Assembly (NCBI GenBank): GCA_963708295.1
Contig: CAVPSJ010000004.1
Location: forward strand, 608,001-672,000
DNA: 64,000 nucleotides
DNA from: an uncultured delta proteobacterium
GTDB taxonomy: Bacteria; Desulfobacterota; BSN033; UBA1163
Direction: 5' to 3'
Shown: piece by piece, positions 8,264 through 37,147 of the stretch
Numbering within the stretch: the first letter of the stretch is position 1
Layout of the letters: each line of letters starts with the position of its first letter
Made by a program: the position numbers and the translations under genes
Notes under the pieces: model-generated
Database searches by the model: none
Seen by the model: only the letters and a program-made list of their open reading frames with translations
Told to the model about the DNA's origin: nothing

Positions 8264-8288
8264 CGACGGCTGCACAAAGGAGATGAAT

Positions 8289-9881
8289 ATGATTCCATTG
8301 AAATTCGCAAGGGCCTTGATGCTTGGCGTTGCCAGTTTGATTTTTATTCTGTCTGTGCCTTCTCTCTCTTTCTCATCTCCGAGGGCTCAGTTAAGCATCC
8401 TCTATACGAATGATGTGATGGGTGAGGTCGAGCCCTGTGGGTGATTCCGAAACCCTCTTGGCGGTGTCGCCAAGAAAGCGACTCTGATCTCCCAGATCAA
8501 AATGACAGGAAGAAAAATACTCCTCCTCGACACCGGGAATCTTTTTTTTCGAAAACCTCCTCCAACGGAAACCAAGCGCAGGGAGGCCCTTCTCCGTGTC
8601 GATCTCCTCGTCCACTCCTACAACGAAATGGGATACGATGTGGTCAATGTGGGGGAGAAAGATCTGATGATGGGGGTGAAGTTTCTCACCGAAGTGAGGC
8701 CGAAGGCGAAGTTTTCTCTTGTTTCTACCAATCTTGTGGACAAAAAAACTGGAAAGTGTATCTTTAAACCTTATGTCATCAAAGAGGTCGTCGGCCTGAA
8801 GGTTGCAATATTCGGCTTGCTGGACGATCAATTCAATCCAACCCTCCAGGAGAACGACCCGGCGTTAACCATCATCGACCCCCTCCCCGCGCTCAGGGCG
8901 GCGATGAAGGGCCTGAGAGAATATTGCGACCTCATGATCGTCCTCTCTCAATTGGGCGAATCGAAAGACAAAAAGTTAGCCAGACAAAATCGCGATATCG
9001 ATTTGATTCTAGGAGGAGGAGGGGAATCGAAAAAAGTGGTGATGGAAAGAGAGAATGGGACCGCCATTTACCGATTGGAGCCGAGGGGAGGATATTTGGG
9101 CCGGGTGGATTACTCCTTCAGCGATACGAAGAGACCCATTCAATTTACGATTTCCAGTGAACGGGAAGAGCTCGAGAAGAGATTGGAAAGGCTGATCTCT
9201 CATTCCATGCAAATGAAGATGGAGATGTCAAAATCAGGGAAGCAGGACAATATCAAGGTAAAGGAGCTGAGGTTCCTGGAATCGAAGCAGAAGGAACTGG
9301 AGAAAACCCTGATTGCCTTTGAAGATAAAAATTCTTACAGGCACATTGCGATCCCTGTGCAACCGGCCGTCACCGATGATCCAAGAATCACTAAAGAACT
9401 GGAAACTTATCGGACGGAATCGGCAAAACTCTATAAGCCAAAAGTGGTCGTCGAAGTTGGAAAGGATTTGCCGGAGAAAGAAATGATCGCCCGAATTCCC
9501 AAGACAAGCCCTTTTGCCGGAGCGATCTCGTGTAAGAGATGCCATGCGGTAAATTATAGAAATTGGTCAAAGACCAAACATGCCCAGGCTTCCCAGACGA
9601 TTGCCGCCTCCCCCAAATATGCCCAGGAGGAGTGCCTCATGTGTCACTCCACGGGCTATGGGAAGATCGGAGAGTATGCCGTCGTTTCAGACATCCCATT
9701 CTACCTTCAGGGGGTCCAGTGTGAGGCCTGTCATGGAGAAGGGAAGGGGCATCCGCAAGGGGGAAGGGTGGAGAGGAAAGTGACCCTGGGAGTCTGCCGA
9801 AACTGCCACACCAAAGATCAAAGCCCCACCTTTAATTATATCGCTTATCTTGAAAAGATCGGCTGCAGGGTCTCCGACTGA
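8289..9881 (+). CDS. Secreted UshA/5'-nucleotidase-like selenoprotein (CGU motif, UGA at 8442-8444) fused to a C-terminal tetraheme c554-like cytochrome, about 530 aa
   Basis: ORFs 8181-8444 and 8502-9881 share a frame; readthrough gives EPCG-U-FRNPLGGVAKKATLI; signal peptide; AAGGAG RBS; CKRCH, CLMCH, CEACH, CRNCH. Confidence 0.85.
8456..8475 (+). promoter_or_regulatory. Bacterial SECIS-like hairpin
   Basis: TCTTGGCG-GTGT-CGCCAAGA, 8-bp stem, G-led loop beginning 20 nt after the UGA. Confidence 0.8.
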
Positions 9882-9940
9882 AGTTCGGAGTTCGGAGTCT
9901 TGAAATTTAATGCTCCGAACTACGAACTCTTACTCCGAAC

Positions 9941-11911
9941 TTAAACCAGGAACTCCCATGCAATCAGGAAGACGCAGAAAAGCCCGACGGCCAGCATTGC
10001 AAATCCCACCGTCGTTGAGAAGAGGTCTGTTCCCACACTGGGGTACTTATCCCGATAGGTCTCCAACGTCTTCTCCGCCAGCAGGCGATCATACTGTTCC
10101 TGCCTTTCCTCCACCAGTTCGTATTTCGGGAACCTTCCTGTAAAGATCACGGTATCGATCGGGAATTTCGAAGGTCGAAAATGGGTGTTGAAGAAATGGA
10201 CGGTGAAGATGAAGCCGGAAGCCAAAAGCGCCTCATCCGAGTGGACGATCGTGGCAATGTTGAGAATCCATCCGGGTAAAAAGATCGTGAAGAATTCTGG
10301 AAACCAGAGCATCAATCCCGAGAATCCGATAGCAAACATCCCCCAGAAGACGGCCAGAAAATCGAATTTCTCCCAATAGGTCCATCGGTCAAACCGGGGT
10401 TTCGGCCCTTTGTTAAAGAACCAGCGGATCATTCCGATGATGTCCTGAATGTCTTTCCAGCGAGGGCAGAGTGAATCCGGGCCGAAAAGCCTCTGCAATG
10501 GGTTGGGGTTTCCACGGATCTTCTTGAAGAAGAGGAAATAAAAGATGTAAGCGATGGTCGTTCCAAAGTAAGCAAAAGTGATGGCAGCACAGATGCGATG
10601 AATCAAGCCGGCCATCCGAGCCCCTCCTAGAAAATGCATCAGACCGCTGGCCCAGGGGGCATGAGCGAATTTCAGCGGGAGCCCGGTCAGGACAAGGCCA
10701 AGGAAAGTCACCATCATCGTGAAATGGAGGACGATTTCAAAAAAGCTAAATCGGCGATAGATATGACCTGCCTCATCCGGTCTCACATGGAGCGAAAAGA
10801 AGACTCCCTTGGCCCTCAACTCCCGCTTTTCCCAGAAGTCTTTCCGCCACCAGAGAAAAGTGTGAAACCAGAACACTCCAAAGACAGAAACAAGGAGGCT
10901 TGTCATCAGGACAAAGGTTCCGTAGAGCACCGGCTCTCTTTCCGGATCTTTATGGGTCGCATGGGCAATCCATTGCACGAAGTTGGCATTGGCCCCTGTG
11001 TGGCATTTGCCGCAGGTCTCCACGCGCCGCTTCTCCGAGATGAGGGATTTCGGGTTATTCGGAGGCAGAATGTTGTGAAACCCGTGGCAGTCAGCACAAC
11101 CTGCCACCAATCTGGGGTAGCCCAGATGCTCCACTTTTCCATGATAGCTTTCGTAATAGGTCTGGGTAGCGATGAGGAAAACCTTGTTTCTCTTCATCAT
11201 CTCTTTGTCCGCGTGACACTTCTGGCAGACTTCCGTATGGAATTCCTTCCGGAATTCCACCGCTTTGGGTTCATCCCCCTTTAACAAAGGAATCTTATGG
11301 AGGCCGTGGCAATCGCTGCAGGCGGCTGAATCCGGATTTCCGTCGACGACAGCTTGTCCGTGAACGCTTTGAGAATAGCCATCATCCGAGTGGCAGGTCG
11401 TACATGTCTGGATCACTCGAACTTTGTCCCCCTTCCACGGGGTCAATTCATGGATGTCTTTATGGCAGTCTTTGCATTGAATGTCGTTGATGAAATGGGC
11501 GCTTGCATAATGTTCCACCCCTTCTCTTTTATGACATCGATGACAACTCACAGGTTCAGTATGGATTCTTCCCCCTTTCGCCTTCCCATGGGCTTTGACA
11601 TCCGTGATATCATAGTGGCAGCTGTTACAGGAGTTGGCCCCATGAACGGACTGGGCAAATTTCCTCTCGCTGATTTTACTGTGACAGCCCAAACATTCAG
11701 AATTGTCAATGCACTCGTAGCAATACTCCCGGCCCTTCGCGACAAACTTCTCCGCTTTCTTAGGCGGCTCAGAGGGTTTGGTCACCCCTGGGGGCTTAAC
11801 ACTCTCTTTATCGGGAGCAGGCGATGCCGCCCACGACACCCCGAAGCTCCAAAGGAACGAGGCAGAGAGAACGAGACAAACAAGGATTGATTTATTAACT
11901 TTGGATTCCAT
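9941..11911 (-). CDS. Nonaheme cytochrome c fused to a b-type cytochrome membrane domain (CbcL-like quinol:cytochrome c oxidoreductase)
   Basis: 9 CxxCH; C-terminal TM domain with LHFTMM, IHRICA, YWEKFDFLAVFWG, IVHSDEALLA..FIFTVHFFNTH. Confidence 0.85.
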   Translation of the reverse strand: MESKVNKSILVCLVLSASFLWSFGVSWAASPAPDKESVKPPGVTKPSEPPKKAEKFVAKGREYCYECIDNSECLGCHSKISERKFAQSVHGANSCNSCHYDITDVKAHGKAKGGRIHTEPVSCHRCHKREGVEHYASAHFINDIQCKDCHKDIHELTPWKGDKVRVIQTCTTCHSDDGYSQSVHGQAVVDGNPDSAACSDCHGLHKIPLLKGDEPKAVEFRKEFHTEVCQKCHADKEMMKRNKVFLIATQTYYESYHGKVEHLGYPRLVAGCADCHGFHNILPPNNPKSLISEKRRVETCGKCHTGANANFVQWIAHATHKDPEREPVLYGTFVLMTSLLVSVFGVFWFHTFLWWRKDFWEKRELRAKGVFFSLHVRPDEAGHIYRRFSFFEIVLHFTMMVTFLGLVLTGLPLKFAHAPWASGLMHFLGGARMAGLIHRICAAITFAYFGTTIAYIFYFLFFKKIRGNPNPLQRLFGPDSLCPRWKDIQDIIGMIRWFFNKGPKPRFDRWTYWEKFDFLAVFWGMFAIGFSGLMLWFPEFFTIFLPGWILNIATIVHSDEALLASGFIFTVHFFNTHFRPSKFPIDTVIFTGRFPKYELVEERQEQYDRLLAEKTLETYRDKYPSVGTDLFSTTVGFAMLAVGLFCVFLIAWEFLV

Positions 11912-15998: not shown

Positions 15999-16065
15999 TT
16001 AGCTCTCCTCCTAAGAGAAATGATGCGCGCGTCATAACGTAGTCAATCGAAGGAGGAGGCATGTT

Positions 16066-17241
16066 ATGAAAAGAGACATCATCAAAAAAGGGATGTTTAT
16101 TATTCTTCTCCTCTTATCAGGCTCATTGGCCATCGCCGACACCTTTCCTGAAGATCCATCAAGAGGGAAGCAGCTTTTTGTAAAAAAAGGGTGTGTGAAA
16201 TGTCATGACGTGGAAGGGCGGGGAAGCAAAATCGGCCCTGATCTCGTTACGAAAGACATGGGCGGCACGCCCTTGGATCTGGCTGCAAGACTATGGAACC
16301 ATACGCCTTCCATGGTCTTGGGCATGGCGGGGACAAGCATGGTCAAACCTGCCTTGACGGGGCAGGAATTTAACGACCTTTCGGTTTACCTCTACCTCCT
16401 CAGATTCTCCGACGGGCCGGGGAATCCGGTGCGGGGAAGATCCATATTTACCGAAAAAGGTTGTCATTTGTGCCATCCTTTTGCAGGTAAAGGGAAACAG
16501 GATCAAATCGGATTCGACGAATTCCCGCGGAATATTTCTCCAATCTTCCTAAGCAAGGGGATCTGGAACCACAGTTTAGACATGATCGCCCGCATGGCTC
16601 AAATCGGAATGAAGTGGCCTAAGTTTAGAGAAACAGAGATGATCGACCTCTTAGCATACATTAAGGCCAAGGCAAAAGGAGCCGACGATCCATCTTTCTT
16701 TAAACCCGGCAACCCGAAAGAGGGAAAACAGCTCTTCAATGCAAAGGGGTGTGATAAATGCCATACCATCCGAGGCGAGGGGGGAGAGGGAGGAGTGGAC
16801 CTCGGCAGAGAGGCTCAAACTTTCCGCACCTCATTCACCGAGATCGCGTCGAGTATGTGGAATAAGGGGCCTGCGATTTTGGCCAAGATGGCTCAGGCGC
16901 AGTCGGGCATTCCCAAGCTGACCTCGAAAGAGACGGCAGACCTTTTCTCTTTTCTTTACTTCATCCCTTTCACCGACGAGCCGGGGAATATCACGAACGG
17001 AAAAATATTATTTTCGGAAATGAAATGTGCACAATGTCATGGGCAAGACCGGATGCGCCGCAAACTGTTATACATCGACCAGTCCAAATATCAGGCCACG
17101 TCCAAAACCAACCTCGTCGCCAGTATCTGGAATCACCGGCTGGTCATCATGAACGCCGCCAACGAAGAACAACTTCCATGGCCGCTCATGGACAATAGAG
17201 AGATGGCAGACCTCGTCGAATTTATTCTCGCTCCCCAATGA
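16066..17241 (+). CDS. Periplasmic c-type cytochrome with four widely spaced CxxCH (tandem class I-like domains)
   Basis: Signal peptide; repeated G..LF..KGC..CH units (CVKCH, CHLCH, CDKCH, CAQCH) with WNH/WNK motifs. Confidence 0.8.
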   Translation: MKRDIIKKGMFIILLLLSGSLAIADTFPEDPSRGKQLFVKKGCVKCHDVEGRGSKIGPDLVTKDMGGTPLDLAARLWNHTPSMVLGMAGTSMVKPALTGQEFNDLSVYLYLLRFSDGPGNPVRGRSIFTEKGCHLCHPFAGKGKQDQIGFDEFPRNISPIFLSKGIWNHSLDMIARMAQIGMKWPKFRETEMIDLLAYIKAKAKGADDPSFFKPGNPKEGKQLFNAKGCDKCHTIRGEGGEGGVDLGREAQTFRTSFTEIASSMWNKGPAILAKMAQAQSGIPKLTSKETADLFSFLYFIPFTDEPGNITNGKILFSEMKCAQCHGQDRMRRKLLYIDQSKYQATSKTNLVASIWNHRLVIMNAANEEQLPWPLMDNREMADLVEFILAPQ

Positions 17242-17274
17242 GGACCGGAATAGGATACCGATACAACGGTAACA

Positions 17275-19002
17275 TCATTTTCTGATCAGAAGTCCTTTCG
17301 CGAATCGGGGGTCGACCTTTTCGCCCGGAGGGACTTTTCCATACTGCACTTGAAATAGGTCAAGACAGAAATCCTGAAAAGCGAGAAGATGTTGCCGCTT
17401 CAGCTCCTCGCCTTCGACCGAACGAAGCCAGTCTCGCAATCCGTTTTTGACCTCCACCTGGATCACCCCCTTTCCCTGGGTATCTCTATCAAAAACCCGA
17501 GAGAGAAAATCTTTCACCTGGGCCTGTCCGATCGCTTCAAATTGAAACCTTCCTTTGAGAATTTGGTTCGCCAGAGAGGTGAGAAAGATCGTAGACAGGG
17601 TCATCTCCCGCCAATCATCGGGATAGCAACCGCTCAAATCCATTTCCTTCAAATAAAGAGGAGAAACTTTCAATTCATCTCCCAGAAAAGTGATCACGGT
17701 CTTGATCCATTCCAAAAAATCATCCGCTTCCTTTAAATCCTGCGGATTCTTGAAATCCTCATAAACCCAATTTCGATAGAGGGTGGGCCTTCTTCTCAAA
17801 ATCCCCTCAAATTTTTCGAAGTGAGGAGGATCCAACAATACCAGATTCTCCTGTTCATTCGAAAACCATGGCCCCTTTAAAAGGGCCTCTGCCTTTCTTC
17901 TCAGGAGCAGGGTGGTGCTCACCCCGTATTGAAATAGCTTTTGCACGGGAAGCGATGGAAGGATCTCGAGGGCCCTGATTTCGTCATCCTTGCTCAAGTA
18001 TTGAAGGCCAAGATTGAGAGCGTGATAGACCTTTTTTACCACCCTCTCCATGGCGGCAATATTGGAAAGGTCTATTGCCTCTGCCACGATGGCCTTATTA
18101 CACAGAGCGGCTATTTCTTGCTTGAGTCTATGTTGCTGTTGAGAACCGTCGATTTTAGAAAGGATGGAGGAAAAAAAAGGGCCTTCCTCTTGATGGGCGA
18201 GATAGAAGATTGATGAGCTGCCTTTCGCCTTCTCTTCCTGAGCCGCGGGCTCAAGAGGCCTTCCTCCTGAAATGGGAGAATCCGGGTTGATAAAATGGTA
18301 GATTTCTAAAGACTCTTCAAAATCGGGGAATCCATAGTCGCTCAGGCGGCTGTTTCGCAAGCGGTATCCTGTCTCTTCAAGCTCTGATTCGAATTCCACA
18401 ATGAGAGAATCCATCAATCTCTGATAACTGTTTTTGTCCGCCCGGTAAAGAATTTGCAGAAAGGGTTCGAAAACCTCTCGGGTCCTTTGCCCTCTGAAAT
18501 GAACGAAGTGGTACTGATCTAAAGTAAAGAGAGCGATTCTGTCCATCTCTTCGACGTGTTCTCCGTCGATCGCGGTGGCATGAATGAACTTTTTCAGAAG
18601 AAGGGCAATGAACTCAATATCGGTAGATTGAATGAATTGGGTGACTTTCTTTTCGCCCGATTCAAGGAGAATCTCCATCCAGTGAAGGACCTTCTCCGGG
18701 TCTAATTGATCCCTTTTCCAGAAATCGAGGTCGAGAAGAAATTGGAATTGTTCGGAAGTGGTGAGTGAGATCAAATCGAGACAATCCTTCTCTCCCGCTT
18801 CCTTTACGGTTAGGAAGACTTCTAATTCGGGGAGTTCTTGAACCAGCTGTTCCGGATGTTCGGAAAGGAATAAATACTGAATTCGGTCTTTGCCATGAGC
18901 CTGCAGGACCATGTCGAGCTGTTTTTCTACGGAGAGAGAATTGAAGACCCTTTGGGCTTCCTTGGTGTCCTCGGGTAAAGTCGCAGGCAGGTCGCTAGTC
19001 AT
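17275..19002 (-). CDS. Conserved hypothetical protein (DUF6178-like)
   Basis: LLDLDFWKRD, RNSRLSDYGFPDFEE, LNLGLQYL; 575-aa ORF. Confidence 0.6.
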   Translation of the reverse strand: MTSDLPATLPEDTKEAQRVFNSLSVEKQLDMVLQAHGKDRIQYLFLSEHPEQLVQELPELEVFLTVKEAGEKDCLDLISLTTSEQFQFLLDLDFWKRDQLDPEKVLHWMEILLESGEKKVTQFIQSTDIEFIALLLKKFIHATAIDGEHVEEMDRIALFTLDQYHFVHFRGQRTREVFEPFLQILYRADKNSYQRLMDSLIVEFESELEETGYRLRNSRLSDYGFPDFEESLEIYHFINPDSPISGGRPLEPAAQEEKAKGSSSIFYLAHQEEGPFFSSILSKIDGSQQQHRLKQEIAALCNKAIVAEAIDLSNIAAMERVVKKVYHALNLGLQYLSKDDEIRALEILPSLPVQKLFQYGVSTTLLLRRKAEALLKGPWFSNEQENLVLLDPPHFEKFEGILRRRPTLYRNWVYEDFKNPQDLKEADDFLEWIKTVITFLGDELKVSPLYLKEMDLSGCYPDDWREMTLSTIFLTSLANQILKGRFQFEAIGQAQVKDFLSRVFDRDTQGKGVIQVEVKNGLRDWLRSVEGEELKRQHLLAFQDFCLDLFQVQYGKVPPGEKVDPRFAKGLLIRK

Positions 19003-23071: not shown

Positions 23072-23430
23072 TTACCAGCCTTCTCTCATTGCACGACATC
23101 TCACAGGTTTGCCAGATCCTTTCAATAAGCTCGACGAGAAAAGCCCTCAGGCTCCTCCACAAGAAACAATTTTATACCGTTTGGAGGCATGCTCGGGTCC
23201 GCGGCGATGCGGACGGTTCCTCCCTCTCGTTTTGCCTGCCCCCTGAAGGGTGAGTTGTACCGTAGGCAGGCCTGCCACAGCTTCAGCGCAGGCGGGCCTG
23301 CCCACCGGAGCTTCAGTGTAGGTGGGAGTTTCGAACTTTAACCCCTGAGCCTTGAGCATTCTCTAAATTTCGGAATCCGCGCTCCCTGCCTACCGGCAGG
23401 CGGGTGCAATCCGCATTTGGATAAGCCAGC

Positions 23431-23529
23431 TTACTTGTTCTTCTTCTCCTTCTTCAGCTTTCTTTTCTCTTTGAGACTCAACTGCGGCGCCTTCTTGCCT
23501 TCCTTCAGCCCTTTGCTTTTCTCTTTCAT
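23431..23529 (-). CDS. 32-aa lysine-rich small protein MKEKSKGLKEGKKAPQLSLKEKRKLKKEKKNK
   Basis: Manual translation; GGAGGAGG RBS just upstream of the ATG. Confidence 0.7.
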   Translation of the reverse strand: MKEKSKGLKEGKKAPQLSLKEKRKLKKEKKNK

Positions 23530-23583
23530 AGTATCCTCCTCCGTTGGACCTTTCTTTATCTCACAACGTCCGCTCGCTCGAAT

Positions 23584-23725
23584 TTAGCTCAACATTTTTA
23601 TGAAATCTGGGGCAGGAATGATCCAATCCAACAATCCCCGACAGCTCTCCTTTGAAAAGCAATGCGGATATCAGGACATTCGTATCCAACACCACCCGTA
23701 CTATCTTTTTCGGCTTCTTGCCCAC
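23584..23725 (-). pseudogene. PIN-domain toxin remnant with large internal deletion
   Basis: N-terminus VRVVLDTNVLISALLFKG joined out of frame to C-terminus IIPAPDFIKMLS*; overlaps the antitoxin stop. Confidence 0.7.
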
Positions 23726-23940
23726 TGGATTGCCTCGCCCACCTCTTTTTCAGTCAGGCCGAGCTTTTTCATTTTTTCCCTAACACGGTCAAGGGAGGAT
23801 GGAACAGGAGTCATCTTCACCGGCGTCAAACGGATCGTATTATCCCTGATGGTGACATCAAAATACTCGGCATCGGGGAAGACTTTCACAATCTCCTTGG
23901 GTAAGGTAATCTGGTTTTTGGACGTCTTCTTGGCAAGCAT
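23701..23940 (-). CDS. AbrB/MazE-family antitoxin
   Basis: TSKNQITLPKEI; inverted repeat TCCTTAC-N9-GTAAGGA at 23944-23966. Confidence 0.8.
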   Translation of the reverse strand: MLAKKTSKNQITLPKEIVKVFPDAEYFDVTIRDNTIRLTPVKMTPVPSSLDRVREKMKKLGLTEKEVGEAIQWARSRKR

Positions 23941-27474: not shown

Positions 27475-27949
27475 ATTATTGTCCGCTCACTTGAGCTCGA
27501 GGGAGCCATGTCCGGCCTGGATCCGGCTTTTTAAAAACTCGTGCAATGTTAGGAAGTTGTAGGATTTTGGCTGGTGAATTGACGAAGAAAGTGCTTCTAA
27601 GACCTATTGTACGGTCTCATTAGAGTCTCAGGTACACTGGCTTAATTCTATCCAGCCTGCCGGGTTGTGTATCCTTTGGAGAAACGCGCAGGGGAAAAGT
27701 GACTGGCGTATCCTCTCCTCTGCATGAACATTCGGCTTGTCGTTTCCATAAAAAGAGAGGGGCTGCTGAATGTTGCGACTCCGGTTGCTTTCTCTGAATC
27801 TATAATGGGTTCGATACGGAGATTGACAGGGGGGCGAACCTACGATAGCCTTAACTGAGGAGGCTTGGCTGCTTGTCGCCCCGAAACAGGTTCCCCGAGG
27901 ATTGCATAGGAGCGGTTCAATCTTGCCACTCCGGAAGGAGAGGTATCTC

Positions 27950-28968
27950 ATGAGAAGAAATCTTCTGGTCATCTTCACAATCTTTTTCGCCCTGATGGGC
28001 CCGGCATACGGAGAGCAATCTGCGGAAGACATCCTGAAAGCGATTGTCAGGATAAAATCGGTTGTTCCCGAAAGCGCGTTCACCGCCCGCACGCTCGGGA
28101 CCGAACGGGAAGGAAATGGTGTGGTCATCGATTCGAAGGGGCATATCCTGACGATCGGCTATCTCATCGTCGAAGCCGAGACTTTGGAGGTCACGACCGG
28201 AGAAGGAAAAACGATCAGCGCCTCTTTTGTCGGCTACGACCATGACACGGGTTTTGGTCTCCTGAAGGCAAACAAGCCTCTTGGCATAACGCCGATGAAA
28301 CTGGGGAAGTCCTCAGAGGTAAAACAGGAGATCCCATTCTGATGGCGGGCCATGGTGGAACGGAATCCGTTCAGGCGGGCCGGGTCATCGCCCGCAAAGA
28401 ATTCGCAGGCTACTGGGAGTATCTTCTTGAGGACGCGATCTATACGGCGCCCGCTCATACAGGCTTTGGAGGGGCGGCGCTGATCGCCCCGGACGGAAAG
28501 CTCGTGGGAATCGGATCTCTCCTCACTCAGGTCGTCATTCCGGGATTCGGCTCTATTGCCTGTAACATTTCGGTCCCCATCGACCTTCTCCATCCGATTC
28601 TGGCAGACCTGATCGCCAAGGGACGAACGAGTGCAGCTCCCCGGCCCTGGCTGGGTCTCAATGTCGAAGAGGCCCACGGTCGCGTCTTCGTCGTCCGTGT
28701 CACCGCAGGGGGTCCTGCGGAGAAAGCCGAGTTGGAGGCGGGAGATATGGTTCTGACCGTGAAAGGAGAGGAGGTGAAAGGCCTCGCTGACTTTTACCGC
28801 AAGGTATGGGCCCTTGGCCATGCAGGAGTCGAGGTCCCCCTCGGTATTCTGAGAGGAACCAGGATCCGTGATATCCCCGTGAAGTCTATCGATCGCAATC
28901 AGCTGCTACGGCAGAAGCTTACGAAGAACTTATGGGATGCCCCGGGCGTTCTCCCTAACGCCCCGTAA
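27950..28968 (+). CDS. S1C (HtrA-like) protease-fold protein with PDZ domain; one frameshift near 28330
   Basis: GNGVVID..GHILTIGY, GGAALI..DGKLVGIGS, PWLGL, GPAEKAEL; the two ORFs join if one base is added (VKQGDPILMAG). Confidence 0.75.
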
Positions 28969-29018
28969 CAAGTTAGGTCCGACTGGGATCAAGATCAATT
29001 TCAATCATAACGCGAACG

Positions 29019-29729
29019 CTATTCTGGGGTCCAGAAGGGACCCGCCTTGCCCAACTTTTTTAACGATAAGAACAGTTCGGATGCGTATTCCTTCACTCGG
29101 GAGAGATAGTCCGGCTCTAGACGATTCCTGAGCAGGGGTCCGCTGAAGACTTGCGCCCAGTTGGATAACGGCATGATGGACTCAGCTGAGACGGAATCAT
29201 AAAGCGACCAATTTTTCACATGTTCTTCCGACCGGAAGAGGTTCATGCGGCTTCAAGCCAAACCCCAGGATACTTCTCCCGTCAAAATCTTGGCGAACGG
29301 GATATTCATGTGTCCCACGGTCGTCGTTGGATTGACTTCCAGGATATCCTCGTCCCGCATGCGGACGAGGATGGGTTGCCCACAATCCAGGCAACGGGTG
29401 TCGATACGGATCTCAGTACCAGGGAAAAGCCAGCGCACGGCCAGCACTTCGAGTCCTCACTGGCCGTACCACTTTTGGTCCCCCTTTATAGTCACAAGAT
29501 AATGGGTCGGTACATTAGAAAACGGCGCCCAGGACTCGACGTAATCTGTGTCTTTAACAAACCAGCAGGCTATGGAGGAGTCGGCTGCCTTATGCTGTAG
29601 CTGCCTGGCCTCTTCGGGTCGCAACCCGAGAGTTGCTGCAAGTTCGGTATAGTGCGGTGCCCGCCCAGTCTTCACAAAATGCTCCACAACAGCAGTGTAA
29701 GCTCGTTGCACCAATGTGGTTTCTTCCAT
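29019..29729 (-). CDS. MerB-like (alkylmercury/organometal lyase) protein with two selenocysteines (U91, U159), 236 aa
   Basis: Three ORF fragments in one frame separated only by TGA at 29457-29459 (WYGQ-U-GLE) and 29253-29255 (GLA-U-SRMNLF); APFSNVPT, CLDCGQPI, FRSEEHV..W motifs; AAGGAGG RBS. Confidence 0.85.
29224..29239 (-). promoter_or_regulatory. SECIS-like hairpin after the second UGA
   Basis: TCTTCC-GGTC-GGAAGA, loop starts 20 nt after the UGA; lower CATG/CATG stem. Confidence 0.75.
29424..29450 (-). promoter_or_regulatory. SECIS-like hairpin after the first UGA
   Basis: GAAGT-GCTGGC-CGTGC-GCTGGC-TTTTC, stem with G-U pairs, loop G 19 nt after the UGA. Confidence 0.55.
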
Positions 29730-29754
29730 ATCATTTCCTCCTTTCTGGTGTTCA

Positions 29755-29943
29755 CCTATCGCCACTCCTATTTGCAATATACACCCTATAGAGACTCTTT
29801 GGAAGTGAAAGTTTTCAGGAAGGAGAATTTGGCCACCTCCTCTCAAGGGGTTGCCTTAAGCCACGTTCCGCAATTTGGATACGGTAACTTTTTTATAGAT
29901 GGCCTAAATCCCTTTTAGGATTCTTATAATTTTATGGATGTCC
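29755..29943 (-). repeat. Duplicated intergenic element carrying a sigma70-like promoter (copy 1; copy 2 at 32424-32675)
   Basis: Shared blocks CAATATACACCCTATA.AGACTCTTTGGAAGTGAA and AGGATTCTTATAATTTTATGGA.GTCC; minus strand TTCCAA-17-TATATT in both copies. Confidence 0.8.
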
Positions 29944-29968
29944 CCCTTTGAAAGGTTTCTCCACTTCT

Positions 29969-32423: not shown

Positions 32424-32675
32424 CCTATCGCCACTCTCTATTCGCAATATACACCCTATATAGACTCTTTGGAAGTGAATGTTTTCAGGAAGGAGTATTT
32501 GGCCGGGAGTTTGGTCGGAAGACAAACCGCACTTGCTTAATTTGCTTAAGTATGTCCCCTGGGTCCCACCTCTTGTCAAGAGGTTGCCCTAAGCTGCATT
32601 CTGCAATTGGAATACGCTATTTTTTTATAGATGGCGTAAATCCCTTTGAGGATTCTTATAATTTTATGGACGTCC
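32424..32675 (-). repeat. Second copy of the promoter-bearing intergenic element, with about 60 extra internal bases
   Basis: Alignment by eye to 29755-29943. Confidence 0.8.
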
Positions 32676-32777
32676 GACTCTGATTTTATGGTATGGCTTG
32701 TCAAAGATAGGCAATTGGCCCCGGTGACCCAGTTTTCTAATTAAAGAAACTTATAATTTTATGGTCATTCCCTGACC

Positions 32778-33892: not shown

Positions 33893-35419
33893 CTATCTCC
33901 GACTTTTTAGGATGCCTAGTGTAGAGTGTAGACCTGACACCTGTGTCTTTTCCCTAGCCACTCTCCCGTCATTCCTTGGCAAAAGACACTCAGATGGAGA
34001 GAGAATCGTTACGCGGGTTGTGGCACGCGTAAGCGCTACATACCAATCCTTCCGGGTCATGTTGTCAGCGTGAATGATTACTGCGTGATCGAACTCAAGC
34101 CCCTTCACGAGAAGTGTGCTGCCGATGCTACGCTTCCCGATTTTGCGACCAGCATGACGGATACGATTCTGCGCCTCCCAAATGGCATCCGTGAGCGTGT
34201 CGCACCGCCGTGCGCACTTCATCTGTAACGCTGAGCGCATCGCAAAGAACATTTGTCCGCGATAAAGGCGGGTGGTTTTCCTGCAATGAAAGCCCAGGAT
34301 CAATTTGAGCACAGGTTCATCCGTAGTGCTCTCGGCAACGGCAACGCCCGTTTCAATCAACTGCCCAAACTTGGTAGCTCCACGCTTCTTGCCGACCTGA
34401 TGGGATTTCACGGAATCAAGAAAATCCTTCTTCTCGGTTCCAGTCATGCAAGCGCCGATGAAATCAAGAGTGTTTTCAAGGCGCTTGAATCCTGTGGCAG
34501 GCTCGATCTTCTGCGCAAACCCGTAGAGATGTCCGCAATCGAGAGGTTCAATATTTGAAAAACCCACCGTCGCGAGCTTCTGGGCGAGCCCAACGCGTCT
34601 ATTTATGTTGGCCGGATCATCGATAACGACCAATCGCCCGTCGCCCGCCTTCCCCATCACACTCTTGCATGTACCTACGATCTTGGCTAGCCTGAAACCG
34701 GGGTCATCTGGAAGGTGTTCCCAGTTCACACATTTCGGACGACTTGTCAGATCTATTGCCCCTCCTTGCTCAAGTGTGCGGCGGACATCAGCAAGCCAGT
34801 CCGCTAGTTCGACATTTTTTGCATTATACCATCGCCAGGGAGTGGTCAGTTCCCCTACCTTCTTGAACACAGGAAATACGTCAGAGTCCCAATCAACGGG
34901 ATTCTGACCTTTGAAGTCGAAGATAGCCTGAAGTGGATCGCCGAAAACGCACACGGGGAGAAAGGCAGCGATAGCCTCGACGACTTGGTGCTGCAGGCCC
35001 GTGCAGTCTTGGTATTCGTCGACAAACACTCCCGAATAGGATGACGCCAATACTCCTTTGACGGCGCCACCTTGGATGAGTTTGATAGTCGCCTCGTATA
35101 CACAGTTCCACTCTATGCCGGTTCTGGGGTTATAGCAAGAGAGACCGGATTGTTTTGGGTATGAAGCCGAATACCAAAGACACCAGCATGCGATTGTATC
35201 GATGCGAAATTTGCCATTCGGGACCCCGTGCTTCTTAAGGCGCAAGCGAAGGGCATCGACACCTGCATGGGTGTGAGTCAATATTAGTCGACGGCCTTCA
35301 GCGACCCAGGTCGCGAGCGCGATCTGCTCAGTTTTCCCACAGCCCGCCGCTGCAATTATACTTCCGCGCTCCAAACTAGCAGCAAGTCGAGCGATTTCTG
35401 TATCTTGATCGTTACTCAT
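33893..35419 (-). CDS. gajB: UvrD-like helicase, Gabija GajB-like
   Basis: AAAGCGKT, LTHT, VDEYQD, FGDPLQAIFDF, KGLEFD, YVALTRA; overlaps the upstream OLD nuclease. Confidence 0.75.
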   Translation of the reverse strand: MSNDQDTEIARLAASLERGSIIAAAGCGKTEQIALATWVAEGRRLILTHTHAGVDALRLRLKKHGVPNGKFRIDTIACWCLWYSASYPKQSGLSCYNPRTGIEWNCVYEATIKLIQGGAVKGVLASSYSGVFVDEYQDCTGLQHQVVEAIAAFLPVCVFGDPLQAIFDFKGQNPVDWDSDVFPVFKKVGELTTPWRWYNAKNVELADWLADVRRTLEQGGAIDLTSRPKCVNWEHLPDDPGFRLAKIVGTCKSVMGKAGDGRLVVIDDPANINRRVGLAQKLATVGFSNIEPLDCGHLYGFAQKIEPATGFKRLENTLDFIGACMTGTEKKDFLDSVKSHQVGKKRGATKFGQLIETGVAVAESTTDEPVLKLILGFHCRKTTRLYRGQMFFAMRSALQMKCARRCDTLTDAIWEAQNRIRHAGRKIGKRSIGSTLLVKGLEFDHAVIIHADNMTRKDWYVALTRATTRVTILSPSECLLPRNDGRVAREKTQVSGLHSTLGILKSRR

Positions 35420-37147
35420 CTACCCATTGCCTCAATTTGGAGATTATCTTCGCTAATGGAGTTTTGGGAATTTGACCGAGGCGTGGCGCAATAATCTCAG
35501 CTAACCGTTCACCTCTCGTGATATCCTTGAACCATGGATTGTTTTTATTCTTCGCTGCTATTCCGATGGCGTGGCGAAAGTCCGCATTGTCACACGACCT
35601 TTGAAGCGTGAGGCCCGTGATTTTAGATAATCCTTTTCTCTCACAAGCGTTATTGATGTTATCCTTAACACTATCCGTCCCTACGGATTTCTCGGCAAAT
35701 TTTATGACTTCAATGACTGTTTCCCACGGTATATCCAATAATATTCGTTCCTCTGTCGAACAGGCATCCGGCCATTCGAGGACTATTCCACCTTTCTTCT
35801 TCACACTTTCAACCAGATTGGGGGGCGCCACCTCATCTGTGTCGAGAAGCATTAAAACCTTGTAGCCAAGGTCAAGGAGAAGCTCTGAAATGACGGGAGC
35901 ATCGGAATTGCCGCCCCCATCGATGGCTATCACGCCTCGAAGTGCGAACGAATCCTTGCCCCTCAGTGCCCACCAAGCGTCTAAGCCACGGAACAAACCT
36001 TGTTCTGTTCGTCCCTCCCCGACCAGGATTCTTCGCGCAAGAAATGCATCAGGTGAACTCCGCAAGTAACGCTGGGCAGTTTCGAGGTGTTTCGCAGTCG
36101 CCGCTATGGAGCGGATCTCTGTCACGCCAGCTTCCGCACGGACAGCGAATATGTCAGAGATTGTCAATTCACGGATGACGACCGGGGAATGGGTGGTCAT
36201 GAATATTTGAGACGCAAGGTCTTTCTCTTTACCTGTTGTTGGGGACTGGAGATACTTGAGTAATCGTGCAATTCGGTGCGGCTCAAGCCCATGCTCGATT
36301 TCATCGATAAGCGCAATGTGCGAGCCGCCGGCGTCATGCTGAAGCGCAGAGACAATCAATCTGGATGAACCCGTTCCGAGTCGCCTCAACGGCAACTTGC
36401 CGTCGTGAAGTGCAATCCCACCGGCCGTAATATTGACGCCCTGAACATCAAGCTCTGCTGCATACTTGTCACGTACGGGTACAGAAAAGTGCTTTCCAAG
36501 CTCCTCTGCTCGGGAAACACTCTCTTTAAAGACACTGTCGTTATCCTGCCGAAAAGCCTCGCGGGCCGCCCTGCTAGCCTGCGCCAGTTGAAGGCTTATG
36601 CTGTCTGTGGTCTCACTTATTCGTGTGAGAATCGACTGACGGCCCCAACCGAGATGCCGCTCCGCGTACGCTCCAAGACGGGTAGTCGCCAACTGCTTGG
36701 CATCCTTGTAGCGAAGCGTTGGCGGATCGCCCTCTTCTTCACCAATTCGGTCGTTGAAGATGGACCAACGCGCTTCAAGCGACTTGTCGATCGTGACGCG
36801 GATGGAAAGCGCATCCTCAAGACCTTCACCAGGTTCGTCATCGACCTTTGATGCCTGCTCGTTCCATCCCCGGAGATACATACCATAGCGATCATCCGAT
36901 CTAAATTCAGAGGACAGGCTGGCCAGGGTGATCGTAATCTCTATTGACTTGTCAACGTCAAGATTGAAGAAATCCGAGTCATCCGAAAAAACGTAGGATC
37001 TGGGGTTCAGGGCAAGCTCGATGGCATCAAGTATTGTCGTTTTAGTAGAATCTCCCGGACCGATGAGGCAGTTCACTCCCCCCTGGGTGCCCAATTCAAC
37101 TCCCTAATGCCCCTAAAATTTCGAATTTCGACAAAGACAATTCGCAT
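35412..37147 (-). CDS. gajA: OLD-family ATPase-TOPRIM nuclease, Gabija GajA-like; frameshift in a G-run near 37080
   Basis: MRIVFVEIRNFRGI, GPGDSTKTT, LIDEIEHGLEPH, MTTHSP, TOPRIM LVGEGRTE and LDTD. Confidence 0.75.

Follow-up and report, generated by a model that had tools for sequence, protein, structure and literature searches.

Two in-frame UGA codons, probably read as selenocysteine, at the catalytic positions of a MerB-fold protein from an uncultured delta proteobacterium

We analyzed a 64,000-nucleotide stretch of DNA (the window) from an uncultured delta proteobacterium (GenBank assembly GCA_963708295.1, contig CAVPSJ010000004.1, forward-strand positions 608,001 to 672,000). The minus strand at positions 29019 to 29729 holds an intact MerB-like gene with two internal UGA codons. 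We are close to certain that its product is a real selenoprotein with two selenocysteine (Sec, U) residues, and both UGA codons would be read as Sec by SelB and the selenocysteine tRNA (tRNA-Sec). The best explanation, to which we give a probability of about 0.5, is an intact two-Sec protein of the MerB fold whose Sec/Glu/Sec site would capture a metal and cleave a carbon-metal bond.

Translation of the window gave a single minus-strand frame of 236 residues, from an ATG at 29727-29729 to a TAG stop at 29019-29021, in which the only in-frame stops are TGA. A ribosome-binding site, GGAGG (29737-29741), was read from the sequence 7 nt 5′ of the ATG. The TGA codons are codon 91 (29457-29459) and codon 159 (29253-29255), which we take as Sec codons from the alignment and the conservation in the family. 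Between them, on the same strand, lie the codon for Glu94 (29448-29450) and a CLDC motif (Cys113 and Cys116; 29382-29393), both cysteines of which are invariant in 30/30 aligned members. The initial annotation of this DNA, made by a model from the sequence, had described one frame split only by TGA at codons 91 and 159, and the translation agrees with it. Under translation table 11, the frame is cut into three open reading frames (ORFs), at 29457-29846, 29253-29447, and 29019-29246.

With Cys substituted for Sec, the window protein matched the Pfam MerB family (PF03243) over residues 70 to 189 at 65.3 bits (E value of 6.6e-18), against a cutoff of 27; this was one of the checks that the initial annotation had proposed. 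HMMER alignment to the solved MerB chains placed U91 on Cys96, E94 on Asp99, C113 on Cys117, and U159 on Cys159, in accord with the earlier assignment of the TGA codons to the catalytic cysteines and of Glu to the position of Asp99. Cys116 of the CLDC motif has no MerB counterpart in this alignment, and the residues at the two Sec sites read Q-U and A-U. An AlphaFold model built from a 30-sequence family alignment had a mean predicted local distance difference test score of 92.4 and a predicted template modeling (TM) score of 0.87. Foldseek comparison of the model with the PDB returned 11 matches with an E value of ≤0.001, all of them MerB or MerB2 (best E value, 7e-10; TM scores, 0.41 to 0.67). 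The gene product thus has a MerB fold in its predicted structure, and by homology U91, E94, and U159 would lie close together in space. The scores against the NCBIfam equivalogs were far lower than their cutoffs, at 40.8 bits versus 140 for SaoL (NF040728) and 27.8 versus 193 (NF009710) and 21.6 versus 200 (NF033555) for MerB. In place of the MerB signature Cys96/Asp99/Cys159, the protein has the chemically analogous Sec/Glu/Sec. The family is separate from both canonical MerB and SaoL.

When 40 kin genomes were searched in six frames, 15 proved to carry a MerB-like gene. There were 19 near-full-length matches at 42 to 47% identity, 18 with two in-frame TGA codons and one with three. Eighteen kin copies were translated (L023, which is split over two frames, and one match without a locus were left out), and all 18 have U in QKWFGQ-U-GFESLAV and in YA-U-STMNLFRSEEH. 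The protein sequence is strongly conserved across and past both TGA codons. A species scan, with one genome per species, yielded 356 relatives, and we analyzed the best 80 of the 356 as loci, resolving four alignment gaps separately before the sites were counted. Among these best 80, 76 have TGA at both sites, and three (L042, L088, and L105) have TGC/TGA; L094 has TGA at site 1, and its contig stops short of site 2. The TGA/TGA pair persists down to 52% identity. The initial annotation had named Trp or Arg at these positions in homologues as evidence against its reading, and the outcome favors that reading: the DNA of the 80 loci has neither TGG nor CGA at either site. Across the family genes, codon 91 is TGA in 96 of 99 (TGC in three) and codon 159 is TGA in all 98 that reach it, and this conservation at both codons excludes a chance origin of the TGAs. 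Glu94 is invariant (80/80 loci and 99/99 family genes).

Some database proteins have Trp at both sites, and these are gene calls from short contigs. Since none of the relatives' DNA has TGG, we take this Trp to be TGA translated under a code in which TGA means Trp. More distant full-length relatives in the protein library have Cys at both sites, with Cys159 invariant and Cys91 in at least 90% (16-sequence alignment). Logan contigs from four other public sequencing runs span the window gene, and among the differences listed none falls on either TGA.

The genome (4.95 Mb in 20 contigs, 91% complete) encodes selA, selB, a tRNA-Sec near selA, and two selD genes, so the selenocysteine machinery that the initial annotation had asked after is present. 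ARAGORN found no tRNA within the window. TGA terminates 468 of the 1109 stop-to-stop frames of at least 400 codons in the genome, where it is the commonest terminator of long frames, and for this reason we regard it as an ordinary stop codon in this organism. The two selD genes, at positions 66608-67531 of contig C17 and 371872-372792 of contig C4, each have one in-frame TGA (Sec-containing selenophosphate synthetase).

The window copy had been described as having a hairpin with a G-containing loop after each TGA, and family alignments bore this out. We aligned 66 nt from each TGA, gap free, for 96 sequences at site 1 and 97 at site 2. At site 1, a 6-bp stem (columns 15 to 20 with 26 to 31, counted from the TGA) begins 11 nt past the UGA and closes a 5-nt loop, NGUNN, whose second and third letters, G and U, are invariant. 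All 570 of 570 cells in this stem are paired (100%); just one change is frequent, a G-to-A at column 18 (14 sequences) that converts a G-U pair to A-U, and columns 21, 24, and 25, which vary, lie within the loop. This hairpin, of the Sec insertion sequence (SECIS) type, lies at 29429-29445 of the window (minus strand, as is the second), with a GCUGGC/GCUGGC stem that includes two G-U pairs and the loop CGUGC. At site 2, the element CUCUUCC-GGUC-GGAAGAG (columns 16 to 33) begins 12 nt past the UGA, and 95% of its cells are paired, with losses nearly all in the outermost pair, which is open in the window copy too. Comparison of relatives placed the second SECIS-type hairpin at 29217-29249, with the upper stem UCUUCC/GGAAGA and loop GGUC at 29224-29239; the window copy has an additional lower stem, CGCAUG/CAUGUG. 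The loop G sits 18 to 19 nt after the A of the UGA at both sites. In SECIS elements of the Escherichia coli type, a stem-loop begins about 11 nt past the UGA and its apical loop contains G/U; the apical loop of the E. coli fdhF element is likewise GGUC.

Single-sequence folding energies were weak (z = 0.0 at site 1, not significant, and z = −1.9 at site 2, marginal), and we therefore took the support for the hairpins from comparison across relatives. Because the stems are nearly invariant, this support consists of the freezing of synonymous sites and not of covariation; invariant pairs by themselves count neither for nor against a stem. The frozen codons are Leu164 (CTC in 95/96), Phe165 (TTC in 98/98), Arg166 (CGG in 95/95), Ser167 (TCG in 96/96), and Glu168 (GAA in 93/96), while other conserved codons are well mixed in the same 99 genes. 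Mean synonymous entropy was 0.63 for the 10 hairpin codons versus 1.44 for 62 other conserved codons in the 99 genes, a contrast with a one-sided Mann-Whitney P value of 7e-4 that is overstated because the sequences are related. An alternative hairpin, GGCCAG/CUGGCC with UGA-91 in its loop, was rejected, being broken by eye in several relatives. A second gene in the window (8283-9944, plus strand; TGA at 8442-8444) encodes a secreted protein that has an EPCG-U motif and, at its C terminus, a Cytochrome_C554 multiheme part; it is probably a member of a catalogued Sec-containing cytochrome or UshA-like family. An 8-bp stem with the loop GUGU begins 11 nt downstream of its UGA, by eye the same layout, as the initial annotation had remarked of the spacing there.

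The two-UGA MerB-like family is large and crosses phyla. The records of the 80 loci are labeled Syntrophobacter, Syntrophales, Desulfobulbaceae, Geobacteraceae, Myxococcota, Gammaproteobacteria, Nitrospirota, Anaerolineales/Chloroflexota, Dehalococcoidia, Acidimicrobiia and other Actinomycetota, Acidobacteria, and others; one of them (L041), at 82% identity, is from an isolate-type RefSeq record, Desulforhabdus sp. TSK. Misbinning of short contigs in metagenome-assembled genomes (MAGs) could inflate this cross-phylum picture, yet Nitrospirota-labeled contigs of 49 kb and 117 kb carry copies that are 83 to 84% identical. An exhaustive protein profile search gave 1167 representatives with an E value of ≤0.001, 363 with ≤1e-10, and 33 with ≤1e-30. 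Among the 150 matches listed, about three dozen end at position 90 and at least 19 start at position 162, and a word-indexed search found many database proteins of 156 to 159 residues that terminate exactly before codon 159. Database entries thus end or start at the TGA sites, the fragmentation by gene callers that had been predicted from the window.

In 12 of the 80 loci, a class III adenylate/guanylate cyclase follows the GKxxP tail of an N-terminal MerB-like module, in proteins of about 393 residues in total (L088, L090, L092, L093, L095-L098, L101-L103, and L107). In another nine, the N-terminal module precedes an AAA ATPase, with a total of about 516 to 526 residues (L067, L068, L071, L083, L084, L091, L099, L100, and L106). 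We confirmed the fusion partners with Pfam on two cyclase and two ATPase loci and assigned the remainder by shared motifs. The fused loci include MAGs labeled Actinomycetota and Chloroflexota, and all keep both TGAs except one, which has TGC at site 1. The genome of the window has a second MerB-like gene on contig C16 (L002, 1435-2204, minus strand), also with two in-frame TGA codons. Its motifs are LYAA-U-AADAF, with the Asp kept three residues past the Sec, and INAF-U-NESLFFWSEEH, and a UUCUUCU-GGUC-AGAAGAA hairpin follows its second TGA. A one-base break in a T-run between its N-terminal helices and the core makes this paralog either a pseudogene or the product of an assembly error.

Canonical MerB (EC 4.99.1.2; PDB 3F0P, 3F2F, and 1S6L; MerB2, 5C17) shares with the window protein its fold, the positions of the catalytic triad, and an equivalent of Cys117, and the two would share a metal site made of two chalcogenates and a carboxylate. 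They differ in the residues at that site (Cys/Asp/Cys in MerB and Sec/Glu/Sec here), in the extra Cys116 and the C-terminal extension (about 45 residues, with GKxGPFW at its end) of the window family, and in context, since canonical MerB belongs to mer operons and the window gene stands without mer genes. Christakis et al. (2021; PMC8261052), in the sections that deal with these residues, describe Cys117 of MerB as buried and use a survey signature that requires Cys96, Asp99, Cys159, and Cys117; proteins of the window type would go uncounted in surveys that demand Cys96/Asp99/Cys159. Also related to the window protein are the Cys/Cys members of the same MerB-like clade (P0109-P0111 and more distant forms), which are of similar length, have a C-terminal GLxGxFW tail and frequently a CxxC, and lack UGA, having Cys exactly at the Sec sites. 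The nearer ones keep the Glu, whereas many of the distant ones (21 to 27% identity) have Asp after the first Cys.

The initial annotation also stated that Sec-containing MerB-like proteins had been reported. The protein in print is SaoL, the MerB-like organometallic lyase selenoprotein of the SAO locus, a member of a different family with a single Sec in a CU motif. From the parts of the SaoL description by Haft and Gwadz that bear on the comparison, the two proteins are alike in the MerB fold (PF03243), in having Sec where MerB has Cys159, in database entries cut at the UGA, and in having putative substrates. In the same account, SaoL retains Cys99 and Asp102, has its one Sec in the CU dipeptide, and is the marker of a nine-gene SAO locus in strict anaerobes, whereas the window protein has two Sec residues, Glu for Asp, and a family with no conserved neighborhood. 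The residue before the second Sec is Cys in SaoL, Ala in the window copy, and variable in the window family. We saw no SAO-like neighborhood beside the gene or around its 80 relatives (no genome-wide search was made for the other Sao families), and the genome has no SaoL-grade match, the best six-frame score being 34.7 bits. Our full-text searches led only to SaoL and turned up no published account of a MerB-like family with two Sec residues. The main texts of two prokaryotic selenoprotein catalogues (PMC9312934 and PMC13188914, supplements aside) have, in the portions that concern MerB or alkylmercury lyase, only SaoL with its one Sec.

A motif search found one HgcA-like frame, some 590 kb distant on the contig that contains the window. 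This hgcA (contig C4, about 16010-17520; L108, 1512-3020, minus strand) has an N-terminal C-U (TGA) motif and the cap-helix motif NVWCASGK, and hgcB, with two 4Fe-4S motifs and a C-terminal CC, directly follows it. The initial annotation had advised a search for hgcAB, and with both genes present, the genome is that of a putative mercury methylator. HgcA with a C-U motif is described in the relevant part of Haft and Gwadz (bioRxiv 10.1101/2022.07.06.499078). Of the 40 kin genomes, 11 have both a MerB-like gene and hgcA, four only the MerB-like gene, 12 only hgcA, and 13 neither. In kin genome G012, hgcA (10709-11788) and a two-TGA MerB-like gene (23196-23882) are 11 kb apart on contig C175.

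With Sec91, Glu94, and Sec159 in place of MerB Cys96, Asp99, and Cys159, the protein would have a site of two selenolates and a carboxylate that could capture a soft metal center, with CH3Hg+ or Hg(II) the likeliest. By the MerB scheme, the metal would be held by the two chalcogenates while the acidic residue protonates the carbon ligand, releasing methane, and the metal would then remain on the two seleniums. Without MerA, its release would be slow and would depend on thiols or on the conserved CLDC pair; the protein may accordingly act as a low-turnover demethylase or as a trap. We count the invariant Glu94 (99/99) in favor of catalysis, and passages of PMC11639659 report that selones cut Hg-C bonds faster than thiones. 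By analogy with MerB, carbon-metal lyase chemistry on organomercurials may take place in vivo, a proposal we hold tentatively, at a little short of even odds.

Several observations weigh against a metal-capturing and carbon-metal-cleaving enzyme, or against parts of the evidence for it. Mercury bound by two selenolates is expected to be very stable. Given that stability and the lack of a MerA or MerT, turnover is hard to picture: in the genome, at its 91% completeness, we found no MerA over the cutoff (best score, 323 bits versus 454) and no MerT. The absence of merA and merT that had been noted for the window therefore holds genome-wide; merR was not searched for. The 21 of 80 relatives that are fused to a cyclase or an AAA ATPase are more in keeping with a sensor or binding module than with an enzyme, and many carriers are labeled as members of mostly aerobic groups (Acidimicrobiia and Gammaproteobacteria). 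The association of MerB-like genes with hgcA in the 40 kin genomes is weak (odds ratio of 3.0; Fisher P = 0.19; the kin are not independent). For the RNA elements, neither stem shows a two-sided compensatory change in the 96- and 97-sequence alignments, and an Rfam scan of 28950-29800 at an E value of ≤10 gave no matching family, only two chance matches to microRNA and snoRNA models. Finally, RNA-library contigs bridge both TGAs, which is a weak hint that the gene is expressed, and such contigs may contain DNA; stretches that they leave uncovered carry no meaning.

Considering the cyclase and AAA fusions in relatives, a binding or sensing role is about as likely as a lyase role. A pure form of this idea, credible but in our judgment the lesser prospect, is that the two-selenolate domain is a high-affinity binder or sensor for a soft metal or metalloid with no turnover, which alone would buffer, chaperone, or sequester the metal and when fused would switch the cyclase or ATPase. 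The fusions themselves (12/80 and 9/80) speak for it, as do the lack of MerA or another product acceptor in the genome, the lack of a conserved operon partner across the 80 loci, and the tight retention of Hg(II) by MerB after catalysis, of which Hg-bound structures have been solved. Binding would not obviously need an invariant carboxylate (99/99), though the MerB Asp contacts the metal too, and the cost of a double Sec suggests demanding chemistry. The two ideas also overlap, since an enzyme domain could serve as a reaction-based sensor.

We think it improbable that the protein is a lyase or transferase unrelated to mercury, acting on another carbon-metal(loid) or selenium substrate such as an organotin, organolead, organoarsenic, or seleno-compound. 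The site is noncanonical, with Glu for Asp and Sec for both Cys, and for SaoL, Haft and Gwadz argue in the passages on that protein that Sec at the metal site may alter the substrate. The family is also common in lineages and habitats without an obvious mercury link, and its association with hgcA is weak. Yet no neighboring gene indicates another substrate, and the only characterized chemistry of the fold is Hg-C protonolysis. The weakest explanation, that two nonsense mutations have killed the gene, that the TGAs are sequencing errors, or that TGA means Trp or Gly under another code, would suit the three ORFs of table 11, the Trp in some database proteins, and the apparent assembly indels elsewhere (the T-run of the paralog and a protease split at 28339-28342), but we give it almost no credence given TGA/TGA in 76/80 loci of many phyla with TGC as the sole alternative and TGG in 0/80, a protein conserved across and beyond both TGAs, conserved hairpins at both sites, a full Sec machinery, TGA as the commonest terminator of the genome's long frames, and four other public runs with none of the listed differences on either TGA.

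Around the two-Sec MerB-like gene of the window lie a PIN-domain ORF, a small ORF upstream, and genes for an RluA-type pseudouridine synthase, a member of the CMD family, a protease of the trypsin-like/PDZ type, and RmuC, none of them mercury related. The protease (27902-28968, plus strand) has its Trypsin_2 and PDZ parts in two frames with an ATGA overlap at 28339-28342, which is either a frameshift or a true split. Across the 80 loci we found no conserved neighborhood; the largest cluster held 10 of 405 flanking ORFs in 9 of 80 loci, and the largest clusters (receiver domains, DHDPS, SnoaL, RibD_C, ACT, SDR, and catalase-peroxidase) gave no functional clue. There was no synteny with the kin copies in the 1.5-kb flanks. 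When positions 24 to 35 kb of the window were compared with the 80 loci, DNA similarity was limited to 28950-29766, that is, the gene and a few dozen flanking bases, with the top identities to a MAG labeled Syntrophobacter sp. (94.5%) and a contig labeled Nitrospirota (93.7%). In 14 genomes of the same genus, the genes that flank the window copy recur scattered at 76 to 96% identity, while the gene region matches only in the 38-nt frozen hairpin stretch or in short stretches at 67 to 76%. The window copy is not the typical copy of its genus. Because similarity is confined to the gene and the copies of the genus are only 42 to 47% identical in protein, it appears to have been laterally acquired, or retained only here, in a variable island.

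The gene, but not its flanks, is covered by Logan contigs from wetland, peat, and sediment runs, in which depth is highest over the two hairpins. An intergenic repeat of about 180 nt (29768-29951) lies immediately upstream of the gene, to which it may not belong, and has a second copy at 32438-32683; the copies are 90 to 94% identical, each lies upstream of a minus-strand gene, and pieces of 60 to 115 nt occur in many copies in same-genus genomes. We rejected this repeat as the mark of a mobile cassette, as the genome has only two to three copies and they have no inverted repeats. Elsewhere in the window, PADLOC identified a Gabija defense pair a few kilobases from the gene, at 33896-37094 on the minus strand (GajA, 628 bits; GajB, 514 bits), and long ORFs at about 37 to 44 kb look like a putative type I restriction-modification system.

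Net methylmercury in wetlands and sediments is set by degradation as much as by formation, and Barkay and Gu (PMC10114901), in their treatment of anaerobic mer-independent routes of degradation, describe these as experimentally unresolved. A family with two selenolates on the MerB fold is an obvious candidate hidden from current merB surveys and gene callers. That the family is a mer-independent, selenium-based system for cleaving or sensing methylmercury, carried among others by mercury-methylating anaerobes, seems to us unlikely, if worth stating. If true, mer-independent demethylation in anoxic wetlands and sediments would, in part, gain a gene, surveys demanding Cys96, Asp99, and Cys159 would have missed the family, and the fused forms would be the first Sec-based metal sensors that drive cyclic-nucleotide signaling. 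Christakis et al. (PMC8261052) state in the pertinent section that HgcAB is encoded in no MerB-only genome; should these proteins be counted as MerB, that statement would have to be reconsidered. In terms of annotation, the gene is present in hundreds of species and is stored only as fragments of 90, 67, and 77 residues. For selenium biology, the family offers a two-Sec protein with two separate SECIS elements, and Cys/Sec, Cys/Cys, and fused forms as comparison sets.

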